Virus record (IMG/VR): IMGVR_UViG_2529292747_000014
Strand: one strand, 5' to 3'
From: a virus
Taxonomy: Duplodnaviria > Heunggongvirae > Uroviricota > Caudoviricetes
Length of the DNA stretch: 7,211 nucleotides
Shown here: positions 1 to 4,956 of the stretch, one piece after another
Numbering within the stretch: position 1 is the first letter of the stretch
Layout: each line of letters begins with the position of its first letter
Notes under the pieces: model-generated
What the model saw: only the letters and a program-made list of their open reading frames with translations
Told to the model about the DNA's origin: nothing
The model's database searches: none
Translations under genes and position numbers: made by a program

Positions 1-921
1 TAACGCTGCCAGAACGCGATCTGCCTTGCGGTCATTCTCAGCCACCGAACGGCGCAACCACTTCCAGAAATTCGGCGCATGTGTTGCCAGCGTTTCCCCC
101 TCTGCTGGTGGGCTGAAAGGTAATTCACTGGCAATTAACAACCAGTCGTTTTTGTTATGCTCCCGAAAATTACCAGTTCTGGTATCAAATACCCCGTTAC
201 TGAATCCAATCAGGTTACGGGCTGCATTCCCCATTACGGGCAAACTTAACTTCATGGTATCGACCGCCGATTTGATGGCGTTCTGCGAATAGCTGATTTC
301 CGCATCAATAAAAATCTGCGCCATAGTCCGCTGTAACTCTTTATCCTGTACCGGCTCCCATACAACACCGTTGTAGTGGTGAACGGTGTCAGAATCCGCA
401 TTGATTGCCAGTTCACCGCCATAATGTGCCAGGAGAACTTCGCCGCGCTGGCTTGCTCCCATCTGGTTAAGTGCCAGTGGTGTCGCGCTGTCTTCTGTTT
501 TTTTCTTTGCCGGAAACCGGATAATCAGTCCGTCATCAATGTTTTTACGCTCACGGGCAAGGTATTCACGCCAGTTCTCACACTTCTGGCTGTGCATGCC
601 ATCAGGGTAATAATTCGCATTCTGTATACTTGCCGCCGCCAGCTTCTGACCAATTGCCTTAACCATTACAGGATCTAACTGTCCGGCTCTGAATATGCGC
701 GCGGATGTGCGCCCATCAGGCACTATTTGCAGATTTCCGATCTCTTTCAGTTGTTCATCAGCCAGCACAACAGGTGGCTCATTATCTCCAGCCATACGCG
801 CATCGTGTTCCTGCCATTGTTTCGCGTGTGCCCAGGCATCACTACCCGCGAAAATAATTACCTCTGTGTCTTTGTGTTTTATTCCGCGTGGCTGTTTTTT
901 TACGTTCGGTGCCAGTTTCAT
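1..921 (-). CDS. Replication primase/helicase of the phage-plasmid P4 / D5 family; N-terminal ~307 codons, gene continues past the window start
   Basis: Absent from the ORF track because it has no in-window stop. Manual minus-strand translation from ATG 921..919 is open to position 1: MKLAPNVKKQPRGIKHKDTEVIIFAGSDAW...LIGFSNGVFDTRTGNFREHNKNDWLLIASELPFSPPAEGETLATHAPNFWKWLRRSVAENDRKADRVLAAL. The last ~70 residues fit the NG-x-hD-x-x-TG...P-x-F-x-x-(W/F)-L pattern of the D5 N-terminal region of P4-family primases. G-rich SD (GGGGGGA) sits ~6 nt upstream; the start overlaps the upstream ORF stop as ATGA. Confidence 0.6.
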   Translation of the reverse strand, partial: MKLAPNVKKQPRGIKHKDTEVIIFAGSDAWAHAKQWQEHDARMAGDNEPPVVLADEQLKEIGNLQIVPDGRTSARIFRAGQLDPVMVKAIGQKLAAASIQNANYYPDGMHSQKCENWREYLARERKNIDDGLIIRFPAKKKTEDSATPLALNQMGASQRGEVLLAHYGGELAINADSDTVHHYNGVVWEPVQDKELQRTMAQIFIDAEISYSQNAIKSAVDTMKLSLPVMGNAARNLIGFSNGVFDTRTGNFREHNKNDWLLIASELPFSPPAEGETLATHAPNFWKWLRRSVAENDRKADRVLAAL

Positions 922-1160
922 TTTTTCCCCCCTGCAACCAGCATTTCACGGATTTTGCGGATATAGCTTGCTGCACGTTTTTGATTTACGGCTTTATAAT
1001 GGTCCACCAGCGTAAAATCACGGCGGTAGGTGATATTGCCTGGCGTAACGTGACGAATAACCACTCGTCCCCCACGTCTGGTGTCGCGGTAAATATCTCC
1101 GAGTCTGATTTCAGGCCGAGAGAGACCGCTGGCAGTAAAGCCAGAATTTTTCTTTTTCAT
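918..1160 (-). CDS. Hypothetical basic 80-aa protein immediately upstream of, and translationally coupled to, the primase gene
   Basis: ORF track entry MKKKNSGFTASGLSRPEIRLGDIYRDTRRGGRVVIRHVTPGNITYRRDFTLVDHYKAVNQKRAASYIRKIREMLVAGGKK. AGGA SD ~10 nt upstream; its stop TGA overlaps the primase ATG. No family recognised. Confidence 0.5.
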   Translation of the reverse strand: MKKKNSGFTASGLSRPEIRLGDIYRDTRRGGRVVIRHVTPGNITYRRDFTLVDHYKAVNQKRAASYIRKIREMLVAGGKK

Positions 1161-1190
1161 AGTTTTATTTTCCTGTCAGCAGTTCCGGTT

Positions 1191-1364
1191 TTATTTCCGC
1201 ACGAATACAGAGTTCAGAAAAAATTCAGGAGAACCAACAATCTCATTACTTTTCAGTCGGCATTGTGATTTCACTTTCCCTTTATCCAGGTAAACCAGTA
1301 CGCGTCCGGTGAAATCATCTGGCACATTAAGCACTACGGGTACATGCGCTTCATGATTATGCAT
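1191..1364 (-). CDS. Hypothetical small protein (57 aa)
   Basis: Below the ORF-track length cutoff; found by manual translation: MHNHEAHVPVVLNVPDDFTGRVLVYLDKGKVKSQCRLKSNEIVGSPEFFLNSVFVRK. ATG at 1364..1362 overlaps the stop of the upstream 197-aa ORF in the motif CCATGCATAA; stop TAA at 1191-1193. It fills an otherwise unexplained 196-bp gap. No family recognised. Confidence 0.35.
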   Translation of the reverse strand: MHNHEAHVPVVLNVPDDFTGRVLVYLDKGKVKSQCRLKSNEIVGSPEFFLNSVFVRK

Positions 1365-1950
1365 GGCTTACATCCTCCGTGAATTTTCTTCTGTAACGCG
1401 TCTCTGCCACATATTCCGCATAGTCCGACGCAATACTAAGAATCATTTCACCCTCTGACTTGTAGCCACTGGTATTGATAAGAAAATATGCAGCTTTCAT
1501 CATGTCAGCAACGCTCAACAATGCGCCCGCTGCATCTTCCGGTGCGCCATCAAATTCCCGTTTCAGGGAATTAAAACGATCATCACGCATGTTTACCCCC
1601 CCCTGAATGACCTGATAACCGCAACTGGTCAGCAATTCGATAAATTCCGGCAGTGTGCCGAAACAGCAATCATCACGCAGACGTTCGCGGGATACTTCAA
1701 CGCCGTTTTCGTAGTGACTCACCATGCGTCCGGTAAAATGCAGATCATCATCGTGATGGCACGTTGACGGCTTAATCAGTCGCGCACGTTCCGCCAGTTC
1801 CAGCAATGCTTCAACGCTTCCGGCAATTGCACCATCCGGCAGGTGATAATTACTTACCACGCGTCCATTCTCCACGTTGACCAGTAGCTGCCCGGAAAAT
1901 ATCTCGTCAAACTGAATGCTGTTAAGGTCAGAAATTGACAGGTTATGCAT
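1357..1950 (-). CDS. Hypothetical protein (197 aa; track ORF 1357..1968 trimmed to the ATG with the best SD)
   Basis: Track ORF MCRRCTMHNLSISDLNSIQFDEIF...; the internal Met (MHNLS...) at 1950..1948 is preceded by a consensus AGGAGG SD with a 6-nt spacer and overlaps the upstream ORF stop (CCATGCATAA). No family recognised. Confidence 0.6.
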   Translation of the reverse strand: MHNLSISDLNSIQFDEIFSGQLLVNVENGRVVSNYHLPDGAIAGSVEALLELAERARLIKPSTCHHDDDLHFTGRMVSHYENGVEVSRERLRDDCCFGTLPEFIELLTSCGYQVIQGGVNMRDDRFNSLKREFDGAPEDAAGALLSVADMMKAAYFLINTSGYKSEGEMILSIASDYAEYVAETRYRRKFTEDVSHA

Positions 1951-3461: not shown

Positions 3462-3486
3462 AAAAAACCCCGCATTGCACGCGGGG
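3462..3486 (-). terminator. Rho-independent terminator between the alpA-like gene and the Bro-N gene
   Basis: On the minus strand: CCCCGC-gtgcaat-GCGGGG followed by TTTTTTG (plus-strand stem 3468-3473 / 3481-3486, A-run 3462-3467), placed ~15 nt after the alpA-like stop and directly before the Bro-N SD. Confidence 0.65.
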
Positions 3487-3500
3487 TATGAAAGATATTA

Positions 3501-3704
3501 TTAGTGGGGATTGGCCTGTTCTCGTTGTTTATCTAACCATGCTTCTACATCTCTACGGTGCCAGGTATGTCGTCGTCCAATTCTGAACGGCTGAGGAAAA
3601 CCATTATTCTCATCTTTCCAGAAATTGATGAATGCACTCATTGCTCCATATCGCAAGATTTTCATTACGTCTTTAGTAAATAAAATATCTTCATTGGTAT
3701 TCAT
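3501..3704 (-). CDS. AlpA / excisionase-family winged-helix DNA-binding protein (67 aa from the second ATG; track ORF starts at 3725)
   Basis: Track ORF MVEEVQQMNTNEDILFTKDVMKILRYGAMSAFINFWKDENNGFPQPFRIGRRHTWHRRDVEAWLDKQREQANPH. The pattern hydrophobic-helix ... FP.P...G.R..W...DV..WL is typical of AlpA/Xis. The second Met (3704..3702) is preceded by GAGGAGG at an 8-nt spacing, so it is preferred over the first ATG, which overlaps the int stop. Confidence 0.7.
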   Translation of the reverse strand: MNTNEDILFTKDVMKILRYGAMSAFINFWKDENNGFPQPFRIGRRHTWHRRDVEAWLDKQREQANPH

Positions 3705-3717
3705 TTGCTGAACCTCC

Positions 3718-4956
3718 TCAACCATTTACTACTCTTAAACCTTTCATACCACCGGATCTATTAATTACCCCTTTTCTCGCATCATCAAAAAAATCACCGA
3801 CCCATTGCATCATGATCTTACGCTGTTCTAGATAAATAGTTCTATTATAAATATCTCTTATTTTATCACCACTTTTATGCGCCAATGCAGCCTCGATTAC
3901 ATCGGGGTTAAATCCCTCCTCATTTAAAAGCGTACTCCACATTGAACGAAAACCATGTAACGTTACAATCCCTTTGAACTTACTGGCAGCAATTGGGGTC
4001 TTGATAGTATTCCTCCCCATAGGCGCATCTTTTGTTCTGGAGGAAAAAAACACATAACGCCCTCTTTTTATTTCCTGCATTGTTCTGAGGATACTAATAG
4101 CCTGTGATGACAAGGGAACAACATGTTCACGATGGCATTTCATTTTATGCGCGGGGATAATCCACAAGCCAGAATCAAAATCAATCTCTGACCACTCTGC
4201 TTTAATCGCCTCACCTGGCCTGACCATTGTCAATATCTGGAATAAAAGTGCATTATGAGCTATTTGATAGGTATGAGGCACACTATCCCACCAGCTCAGA
4301 AATTCAGGCAATCTTTCAACAGGTAGTGCTGCTAATGATTTATTTTTCTTTCCTGTGAATGCAGTCTTTATCTTAAGTAATGGATTTGCTTTCAATGCTC
4401 CACAATTTACAGCATAATTCATAATTTCATTTAATCTTGATATTAATTTTTTTTGCAACGCATTCTTATCGGATACGGCATCCAGAGCATTAATAGCTAC
4501 TGGTGCTGTAATTTTTTCTATACTGTACTTACCAAAGAAAGGAACAAGATATTTGTATACTTCATATTCGATATTATACAGCGTAGGTTTCCGCAATTCA
4601 GATCCCTTTTTAAAAGCGAACCATGCATTAGCAACAGCTTCAAATGTCTGTAGATTTTTTAGTGACATCTCAATTTTACGATTTTTCTTCTCCGTCACTG
4701 GATCAACTCCACGTGCAATCATTCGCCGAAGTTCATCACGTACTTCCCGTGCTTCCGCGAGTGAGAATTCAGGAAAACGTCCTATCGTGTATGTCTGCCG
4801 TTTCTTCGTTATCGGATGGCTATAACGGAAACGCCACACTTTCCCACCGGCTTTACTCACATTCAGCAATAAACCGAACCCATCATAAACGGCATAGTCC
4901 TTTTCACGTGGTTTCATCCCCTTAACTTCAGTCACGGTTAATGGCTTTACCGACAT
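3718..4956 (-). CDS. Tyrosine recombinase, P4-type phage integrase (412 aa)
   Basis: Track ORF; N-terminal arm-binding region LTVTEVKGMKPREKDYAVYDGFGLLLNVSKAGGKVWRFRY...LAEAREVRDELRRMIARGVDP matches the P4-integrase N-terminal pattern; C-terminal catalytic region carries HGFRS and ALAHK...IRD.Y motifs. GAGGG SD is 6 nt upstream of the ATG. Confidence 0.9.
   Translation of the reverse strand: MSVKPLTVTEVKGMKPREKDYAVYDGFGLLLNVSKAGGKVWRFRYSHPITKKRQTYTIGRFPEFSLAEAREVRDELRRMIARGVDPVTEKKNRKIEMSLKNLQTFEAVANAWFAFKKGSELRKPTLYNIEYEVYKYLVPFFGKYSIEKITAPVAINALDAVSDKNALQKKLISRLNEIMNYAVNCGALKANPLLKIKTAFTGKKNKSLAALPVERLPEFLSWWDSVPHTYQIAHNALLFQILTMVRPGEAIKAEWSEIDFDSGLWIIPAHKMKCHREHVVPLSSQAISILRTMQEIKRGRYVFFSSRTKDAPMGRNTIKTPIAASKFKGIVTLHGFRSMWSTLLNEEGFNPDVIEAALAHKSGDKIRDIYNRTIYLEQRKIMMQWVGDFFDDARKGVINRSGGMKGLRVVNG

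Follow-up and report, generated by a model that had tools for sequence, protein, structure and literature searches.

The stretch of DNA considered here, hereafter the window, comprises 7,211 nucleotides of a virus record of the class Caudoviricetes (IMGVR_UViG_2529292747_000014) and is 100% identical to the chromosome of PA2, an Escherichia coli of O157:H7 type. Positions are window coordinates unless preceded by L002, a longer sequence of the locus in which window positions 1165-1364 correspond to 21165-21364. Over positions 1-6959, the other O157:H7 genomes listed match at 99.9-100% identity, and at least 80% of the window is carried by 44 genomes among the matches listed. What fills most of it, namely an integrase gene, a gene for a small helix-turn-helix (HTH) protein, a variable 'Bro zone' and a set of replication genes, was viewed in the original prediction as a module of a satellite or of a phage-inducible chromosomal island (PICI) rather than of a complete prophage, and this view stands, the replication protein sharing 82% identity with its counterpart in a published PICI and 49.6% with the alpha protein of P4. 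The element had further been pictured as a free-standing chromosomal island; instead, it lies inside gpA, the large-terminase gene of a lambdoid prophage, hereafter the helper. The block likely corresponds to one half (integration, 'Bro' and replication) of a 10.4-kb PICI inserted in this gene and co-oriented with the late operon, and the element belongs specifically to the helper-embedded PICIs (HE-PICIs). The island measures 10,429 bp with the core counted once; the window holds its front half, and in complete genomes the island reaches 5.3 kb beyond the left window edge. On the integrase side of the island and in the adjoining part of the helper, the features are as follows.

3467-3487, minus strand: strong intrinsic-terminator-like hairpin directly after the HTH gene (9-bp stem with 6 GC pairs, T tract)
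3501-3725, minus strand: HTH protein of 74 amino acids at the AlpA position, candidate excisionase/activator (HTH_17 E=0.005, below the Pfam cutoff; PHROG 66, 1.7e-7)
3718-4956, minus strand: tyrosine integrase of P4/CP4-57 type, 412 amino acids (Arm-DNA-bind_3 5e-23, Phage_int_M, Phage_integrase 1e-20)
4974-4991, minus strand: P' arm carrying a doublet of the arm-type repeat GGACTA with 12-bp spacing (read as TAGTCC in the plus strand, 4974-4979 and 4986-4991), at +133/+145 from the core
5116-5127, no strand: attL identity block CCCTACATCCAA, with the crossover inside CATCCAA (5121-5127), the complement of TGG ATG for Trp-Met of gpA
5118-6125, minus strand: ATPase-domain fragment (335 amino acids) of the helper gpA large terminase, cut by the island (GpA_ATPase 6e-82)
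6122-6598, minus strand: helper DUF1441 protein, overlapping gpA and directly upstream of it (Pfam 3.8e-48)
6635-6837, no strand: helper cos-like region (203 bp) upstream of the DUF1441 gene, with two copies in the island

Two junctions delimit the island. On the integrase side, the block had been closed at 4956, the outer end of int; attL is found further out, at 5116-5127, where the truncated terminase ends 161 bp upstream of int with a stop codon supplied by the island. The leftward extension proposed in the original prediction for finding the far end and the att repeats did yield attR, beyond which lies the nuclease half of gpA (GpA_nuclease 2e-82), the split thus falling between the ATPase and nuclease domains. 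The RefSeq annotation likewise places an N-terminal gpA fragment beside int and a 'gpA endonuclease' fragment 10.4 kb off, with portal, capsid and tail genes after it. The sequence CCCT(A/C)CATCCAA is common to both junctions as a 12-bp identity block, in which the single mismatch places the crossover within CATCCA(A/G) at 5121-5127. When the gpA halves are rejoined at CATCCAA, neither contains a stop and an in-frame open reading frame (ORF) of 707 amino acids is obtained, reading IASFWMEGPAAAF across the join; the attB junction predicted in this way is GGCCCCTCCATCCAAAATGACGC (context GCTGGCCCCTCCATCCAAAATGACGCAATCC) and the attP junction predicted from the island is TACCCTACATCCAAGAAGAAGTAAAT (context AATGTACCCTACATCCAAGAAGAAGTAAATAAAAGG). 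The reconstructed 600-bp empty site is uninterrupted in about 495 complete E. coli genomes, many of them at 100% identity, as well as in 12 phage records (VT1-Sakai, CP-1639 and several Stx2a phages among them), while junction-spanning probes detect attL in 74 and attR in 79 complete genomes, and alignments to uninterrupted gpA break off exactly at the core. Judged from these sequences, the insertion is precise and of conservative type, by site-specific recombination, the precision being read from the identity block at both flanks, the 7-bp crossover and the intact rejoined gpA ORF. Tandem or rearranged prophages and copies of IS629 abound in O157 genomes, and the locus could be pictured as a defective P4-like prophage lying beside a lambdoid one, with terminase fragments left by unrelated deletions or rearrangements; this is scarcely credible, since the two fragments complement each other exactly and, joined at a common 12-bp block, restore the reading frame, the intact gene exists elsewhere at 100% identity, and the break falls at the same codon in all genomes examined, Salmonella included.

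The core CATCCAA is the complement of TGG ATG, and Trp and Met have one codon each, which offers a plausible explanation for the persistence of the site across gpA alleles with differing synonymous neighbours and for its being usable across diverged alleles. Two candidate observations at the site were set aside. A resemblance of the core to the CCA end of tmRNA was dropped because, on inspection of the sequence, the similar stretch does not lie on the strand that the orientation of int would call for, and a supposed 44-bp 'excision scar' in O111 strains turned out to be a duplication in tandem, located about 235 bp away from the att core and unrelated to the island. This duplication frameshifts an uninterrupted gpA in several O111 strains, e.g., O111:NM FWSEC0005 (L087), as seen in matches H27-H29.

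To the left of the window, the island comprises the rest of the replication gene, an ORF of 81 codons, a gene for a single-stranded DNA-binding protein (SSB), an ORF of 64 codons, a gene of 629 codons encoding a fusion of a ClpP-type prohead protease with a major capsid protein (MCP), and an ORF of 93 codons. The statement that capsid genes are lacking therefore holds for the window and fails for the island, because of this fusion, which is 52% identical to the 659-amino-acid fusion of the helper and has about 35 residues fewer in the protease-capsid linker. Beyond attR, the nuclease half of gpA is followed by the portal gene, the 659-amino-acid protease/capsid fusion of the helper and a full lambdoid tail module, while on its other flank the helper has lysis genes, Q, replication genes (O/P) and a gene for a cI-like repressor. 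Structural genes to the left had been named beforehand as the mark of an ordinary prophage, and capsid, portal and tail genes are literally found there; the satellite reading nonetheless stands because they are those of the interrupted helper, beyond attR. Between the att sites, RefSeq annotation and profile scans revealed no terL, portal, connector, tail, holin or lysis genes, so that of the lysis, head and tail modules of a complete prophage the island holds one capsid gene only. Since PICIs and capsid-forming PICIs (cf-PICIs) can carry capsid and terminase genes (PMC10085698) and the island does have a capsid gene, terminase and capsid might be regarded as the cargo of a stand-alone PICI or cf-PICI. 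This is very improbable: each gpA half is found outside the att sites, one at either end, the lysis genes past one half and the portal, head and tail genes past the other are arranged as in a complete lambdoid late operon, and the island, unlike a cf-PICI, has no terL, portal or head-tail connector gene of its own.

A further trace of the helper inside the island is a mimicry of its cos-like region. One copy (L002 15383-15584) is 86% identical to the helper segment over 209 aligned positions and lies between the capsid gene and the 93-codon ORF; a second (L002 18029-18121) is 84% identical over 95 bp and lies between the SSB and capsid genes. The two copies are in direct orientation, 2.6 kb apart, and flank the capsid gene, each preceded by a hairpin and a T tract; copy 1 alone extends into the A/T-rich part adjoining the DUF1441 position. 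The helper DUF1441 protein is taken as the small terminase from its position. The gene is missing from the O157 island, and the island variants of A5 (pig) and IMT16316 (wild bird) have their own DUF1441 gene, 49% identical to that of the helper and situated between the cos-like segment and the 93-codon ORF (L005 4560-5045 and L103 2863-3348, respectively). At the right end of the window, an IS3-family insertion sequence (IS) occupies 6960-7211, about 120 bp past the cos-like segment; RefSeq names it 'IS3-like element IS1203 family transposase', its OrfA was read as IS629-type, and it is specific to PA2 among the genomes listed, the others matching up to 6959.

The integration module is the part in which the island departs from what has been described. 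The P4-type integrase recognised in the original prediction was borne out by its three domains, and it is 33% identical to P4 Int and 38.5% identical to IntA of CP4-57 in strain K-12. For alpA, a HTH gene does occupy the expected place, PHROG 66 being labelled 'excisionase and transcriptional regulator' and one RefSeq record assigning the protein to the AlpA family; on the other hand, neither Pfam Phage_AlpA nor K-12 AlpA gave a match, and the match to the HTH protein of the PICI Eco567.11capE (hereafter 11capE) is weak (6e-5). In the reconstructed attP, G(G/T)ACTA occurs as 12-bp-spaced doublets at -85/-73 and +133/+145 from the core, a count reached in none of 1000 shuffles, and the arm doublets are kept in diverged island copies. 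As annotated in GenBank, the attP of P4 has the same layout, i.e., 12-bp arm-repeat doublets on either side of the core, and from its sequence the island attP looks like a canonical attP of the P4 family. In its P arm (L002 about 14745-14760), a single AGGGGGCATAA stands beside the GGACTA doublet and resembles the P4 arm repeat TTGGGGGCATAA, which may be due to chance. ARAGORN found no tRNA or tmRNA in the window, and no terminator-like site was found between the stop codon of the truncated gpA and the start of int. The G+C content of the int/HTH module (3600-4800) is 0.35-0.40, as against 0.44-0.51 in the remaining island and 0.52-0.585 in the terminase genes; because it is below that of the rest of the island, it suggests that the integration module came from a lineage of lower G+C content and was joined onto a resident PICI backbone.

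HE-PICIs were described by Tommasini, Mageeney and Williams in 2023, with 11capE of E. coli NRG857c as founder (PMC10111431). Their traits are a site in a late gene, co-oriented int, alpA and primase genes, four zones and a doubled TGTATTGC motif on both attP arms; the survey counted 14 sites, those in terminase genes being in Terminase_1 genes, and included loci scoring at least 400 bits by TBLASTN against the 11capE integrase (PMC10111431). Like 11capE, the island lies inside a late gene of a prophage whose attB is uninterrupted in relatives, its int, alpA-position and primase genes are on the minus strand together with DUF1441 and gpA, and its attP has no replacement sequence for the target gene. 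The four ordered zones are likewise recognised, namely (i) the Integration zone with int and the HTH gene, (ii) the Bro zone with Bro-N, YlcI and Icd, (iii) the Replication zone with DUF4222, primase and SSB, and (iv) the Late zone with the capsid fusion and cos; the gene order is nearly the same from int, HTH gene and Bro zone, through the divergent YlcI/YnfO gene and the Icd-like gene, to DUF4222, primase, SSB and capsid. Both islands contain a helper-like cos segment, that of 11capE extending over 258 bp at 90% identity (PMC10111431), and the doubled arm motif at +133/+145 coincides exactly with where 11capE has its TGTATTGC doublet. In contrast, the integrase is only 24.7% identical to that of 11capE (86 bits, where the survey required 400), GGACTA takes the place of the arm motif TGTATTGC, which is absent from the island, the capsid gene is a ClpP-protease/MCP fusion instead of the lambda-E type, and a GpA-family terminase is not among the 14 sites of the survey. 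In the parts of the supplementary files of PMC10111431 that could be consulted, the GpA site, the att block and six checked island-carrying genomes do not occur, and a literature search found no later paper on helper-embedded satellites or terminase-targeted PICIs. Helper-embedded satellites are as such a kind known since 2023, of which the present island is a variant with another integrase lineage and a target unreported there; what appears new is the GpA-family large terminase as target and an integrase lineage that apparently forms a second clade.

Other satellites resemble the island in part. With EcCICFT073-like PICIs of Gram-negative bacteria (PMC10111431, PMC10085698), it shares an int gene followed by a candidate regulator at the AlpA position pointing inward, pri-rep, a capsid-related gene, a size of about 10 kb, a helper-like cos segment and the lack of tail and lysis genes; it differs from them in sitting in a helper prophage instead of a chromosomal housekeeping or tRNA gene, in an AlpA-like protein under the Phage_AlpA threshold and in the lack of terS in the O157 variant. 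Among the components of the PICI core of SatelliteFinder (PMC10085698), the island has the integrase, the primase-replicase and the capsid gene and is devoid of tail and holin genes, the place of the AlpA/MerR-type regulator next to int is occupied by the HTH protein, and the small terminase is missing from the O157 island. Likeness to P4 lies in Int, in alpha residues 304-776, in the Icd-like gene and in the layout of the attP arm doublets. Unlike P4, the island has no sid, delta or psu (from RefSeq names and from Pfam and PHROG scans of the island ORFs), no match to CI RNA/seqA in Rfam and no N-terminal primase domain of alpha, its helper is lambdoid instead of P2-like, and its target is a phage gene instead of a tRNA gene.

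The remaining genes of the window, from the Bro zone to the left edge, are listed below.

2860-3441, minus strand: Bro-N (anti-repressor-like) protein of the variable Bro zone (Pfam 1.1e-18; PHROG 2593, 1e-85)
2560-2739, plus strand: small protein of the YlcI/YnfO family, opposite to all else (NCBIfam NF041551, 2.4e-20)
2449-2498, no strand: promoter-like sites, divergent and overlapping, in the interval from the Icd operon to the YlcI gene, candidate for a regulatory switch (consensus matches only)
2160-2363, minus strand: Icd-like protein, first in the leftward replication operon (NCBIfam phage_ICD_like 1.9e-19; PHROG 6196)
1943-2167, minus strand: protein of 74 amino acids (PHROG 5146)
1357-1950, minus strand: protein of 197 amino acids (PHROG 2512)
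about 1165-1364 (L002 21165-21364), minus strand: small ORF, frameshifted in the RefSeq annotation
918-1160, minus strand: DUF4222 small protein, directly upstream of the replication gene (Pfam 3.9e-8)
1-921 (L002 19107-20921), minus strand: replication protein, first 307 of 604 codons, the gene crossing the left window edge (D5_N, DUF5906 superfamily 3 helicase and Pox_D5)

The call of a Bro-N gene in the original prediction proved right. The ribbon-helix-helix regulator placed next to it exists as a gene, but its family is YlcI/YnfO and it is encoded on the plus strand, so that co-orientation does not extend to the whole block. Terminator-like hairpins (3467-3487, 2828-2913) follow both the HTH gene and the YlcI gene of the plus strand, and a bidirectional one lies within the 3' end of Bro-N, which suggests that the Bro zone is transcriptionally insulated from int-alpA. 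The replication gene had been called a P4/D5 primase, and the domains are indeed there: the full-length protein encoded in L002 matches D5_N (3e-13), DUF5906 (7e-11) and Pox_D5 (5e-13), so that the lack of D5_N, mentioned beforehand as a sign against a satellite, was not encountered. The 82% identity is to the 11capE primase, and that to P4 alpha is limited to alpha residues 304-776, i.e., the helicase and C-terminal parts; the protein has no counterpart of the N-terminal primase domain of alpha, although it is named 'DNA primase family protein', and its first ~124 residues gave no profile match. The position of DUF4222 is the same in 11capE and in relatives of the island. Accessory or antiviral cargo had been anticipated for such a module, and none was found by PADLOC among ten island proteins. 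The 197-amino-acid protein gave no match in Pfam, PADLOC or PDB searches, nothing significant (Rpp-like or other solved relatives) was found among PDB sequences for the 93-amino-acid, 197-amino-acid and HTH proteins, and a search for P4-like RNA immunity (CI RNA/seqA; Rfam C4, isrK) returned only chance-level Rfam matches at E<=1. In the Bro/replication region of several relatives, a conserved ORF of 292 codons occurs (L098 7384-8262, L095 7891-8769, L096 7376-8254 and L092 8791-9669) with a faint match to Phage_integrase; it is missing from the O157 island.

The lineage of the integrase becomes apparent depending on the collection searched. In species-representative genomes, its best relatives are 35-40% identical and none exceeds 40%; of the 34 loci scanned, 32 have a tmRNA or tRNA gene (Ser, Val, Leu) upstream of the integrase, at a distance of up to about 500 bp. 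In a large protein collection, where alone the clade is visible, relatives from Enterobacterales grade from 87% down to 44% identity, and every one examined down to 44% is directly downstream of co-oriented phage late genes. Their sites are the following.

Salmonella, 76% identical: gpA, codon as in the O157 island
Salmonella, 63%: downstream of a gene of Peptidase_S78 type, which itself comes after the portal gene
E. coli, 60%: gpA of lambda type, interrupted at the homologous codon (SFHIW|T), with core CACATCTGGAC
E. coli, 60%: a further site, in a phage combining a lambda-type head with a P2-type tail
E. coli, 49%: downstream of a gene for a small terminase
E. coli, 50%: after a DUF2213/Pa193_gp24 gene
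Raoultella, 52%: after a 153-amino-acid fragment of the major capsid gene
Enterobacter, 49%: after a baseplate-region gene (Sheath_initiator)
Providencia, 44%: tail-tip region
Pantoea, 45%: after the portal gene

The split of the target is verified in the two gpA families and suggested by fragment length in the Salmonella gpA and the Raoultella capsid gene, adjacency only being seen in the others. A Serratia relative (42% identical) has an ordinary chromosomal context. In a neighbour-joining tree, the integrases associated with late genes form one group, sister to the CP4-57/tmRNA group, with 11capE far outside, and a doubled GGACTA-type motif is found just upstream of the int start codon in most members of the clade. 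CP4-57 IntA and the other tmRNA/tRNA-targeting integrases are thus the closest relatives outside the clade (35-40%) and have the same domain set, but they adjoin tRNA or tmRNA genes, whereas the island integrase and its relatives of at least 44% identity are in or after phage late genes. On this evidence, we consider it probable that helper embedding is not confined to one integrase clade and that a second one, sister to the CP4-57 IntA group and with its own GGACTA doublet, occupies late-gene sites across Escherichia, Salmonella, Raoultella, Enterobacter, Pantoea and Providencia, in or right after genes for GpA terminases (two families, homologous codon), protease/capsid, major capsid, portal-side, baseplate and tail-tip proteins. 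If so, late-gene tropism arose or was selected at least twice; and since the replication and late modules are common to both clades (primase 82% identical), integration modules would be exchangeable among satellites.

Some members of the lineage have features of their own. The E. coli loci of TUM9812 (L102 12022-24559) and SA53-3 (L101) carry the lineage of 60%-identical integrases; the island in lambda-type gpA uses a RepA-type helicase for its replication and has capsid and decoration genes of lambda-E type. A 96%-identical integrase (blastn, int region) is found at a different late-region site, which may be an off-target or a second site. A clade member of the Raoultella type, after a major-capsid fragment, is on the 42-kb contig vOTU_01619 (ENA, L095), which is labelled a viral operational taxonomic unit. 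Composites of helper and satellite may occur in virus-derived or virus-predicted data.

Regarding distribution, 90 of the 5,426 complete E. coli genomes have the int-HTH module, the carriers being O157:H7, O145:H28, O121:H19, O111:H8, O22:H8 and strains other than Shiga toxin-producing E. coli (STEC), and the exact integrase sequence occurs in 6,631 blocks of a public assembly index; no island DNA was matched in 50,697 records of sequenced phage genomes. Wherever its context was inspected, the island interrupts gpA at this one codon, and in the Salmonella relative with a 76%-identical integrase the gpA fragment ends at the same SFWM*. At least three helper backgrounds differ, namely DLP12-type genes (ybcK, emrE, rusA) in O157, a Qin-like prophage in O121 and A5, and another in SCU-171, and gpA beside the core occurs as two alleles, CATCCAAAATGACGC versus CATCCAGAAACTGG. 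In IMT16316 (L103 11286-12395), an IS1 insertion has eliminated the larger part of int and the HTH gene from an island otherwise complete and still in gpA; this copy is immobilised and the terminase of its helper permanently broken. What first resembled a 'hybrid integrase' with the arm-binding end only (H90) is this same island, with int cut by IS1.

Several points weigh against the reading as a working helper-embedded island. The AlpA assignment is weak, being under the Pfam threshold, and is the weakest gene call of the block; the helper segment owes the label 'cos' only to its location and to the homology with the island copy, and the steps considered below, beyond the precise insertion, derive from the biology of 11capE and of PICIs. 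One small ORF is frameshifted in the O157 copy, which has no DUF1441 gene of its own, the tail-assembly gene T of the helper is truncated, and in PA2 an IS629-type element stands between the lysis genes and the terminase operon; because of these lesions, this composite may be defective. The O157:H7 copies are moreover nearly identical (~100%), as vertical inheritance predicts and hence compatible with vertical descent. Together with the IS1-truncated integrase of IMT16316, these observations would fit a dead insertion, i.e., an island once helper-embedded and now an immobile remnant in O157:H7 that keeps the terminase broken and the prophage cryptic. We regard this as unlikely: int, the HTH, replication and SSB genes and the capsid fusion are intact and the gpA halves are free of stops, the int-alpA module is 99.9-100% identical across the five serotypes named above, and two gpA alleles in different prophages require recent independent integrations.

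For the helper-embedded island, a sequence of events can be proposed that draws on the observed co-orientation with the late operon, the intact int, replication, SSB and capsid genes and the cos-like mimicry. As long as the island is integrated, the helper would be unable to make terminase. Upon induction, antiterminated (Q-modified) late transcription would run through DUF1441 and the truncated gpA into int and the HTH gene; Int and the AlpA-like factor would then excise the island, by which gpA, hence the terminase, would be restored and a circle released. The circle would replicate by means of its own D5/alpha-type helicase and SSB module and be packaged by the helper terminase via the mimicked cos site, using the portal and tails of the helper, while the protease/capsid fusion of the island may form heads, or alter their size, to suit a 10-kb genome. 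In the experimental case of 11capE, the composite excises upon mitomycin induction and then replicates, the satellite excising afterwards (PMC10111431).

In practical terms, such islands make intact prophages look defective in annotation ('terminase pseudogene'), and satellite finders that forbid tail or holin genes nearby may miss them. In helper-embedded satellites, the integrity of a late gene of the helper depends on the excision of the satellite, and since the interrupted gene is here that of the packaging motor, neither partner would be packaged until the satellite leaves, which amounts to a very direct control of the prophage. As the helpers are lambdoid and the same gpA allele is found in Stx phages (VT1-Sakai), the element could affect which STEC prophages form particles. 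If the second clade is real, the question shifts from the peculiarity of one integrase clade (PMC10111431) to the selection for late-gene targets, for which two independent systems would be available for study.

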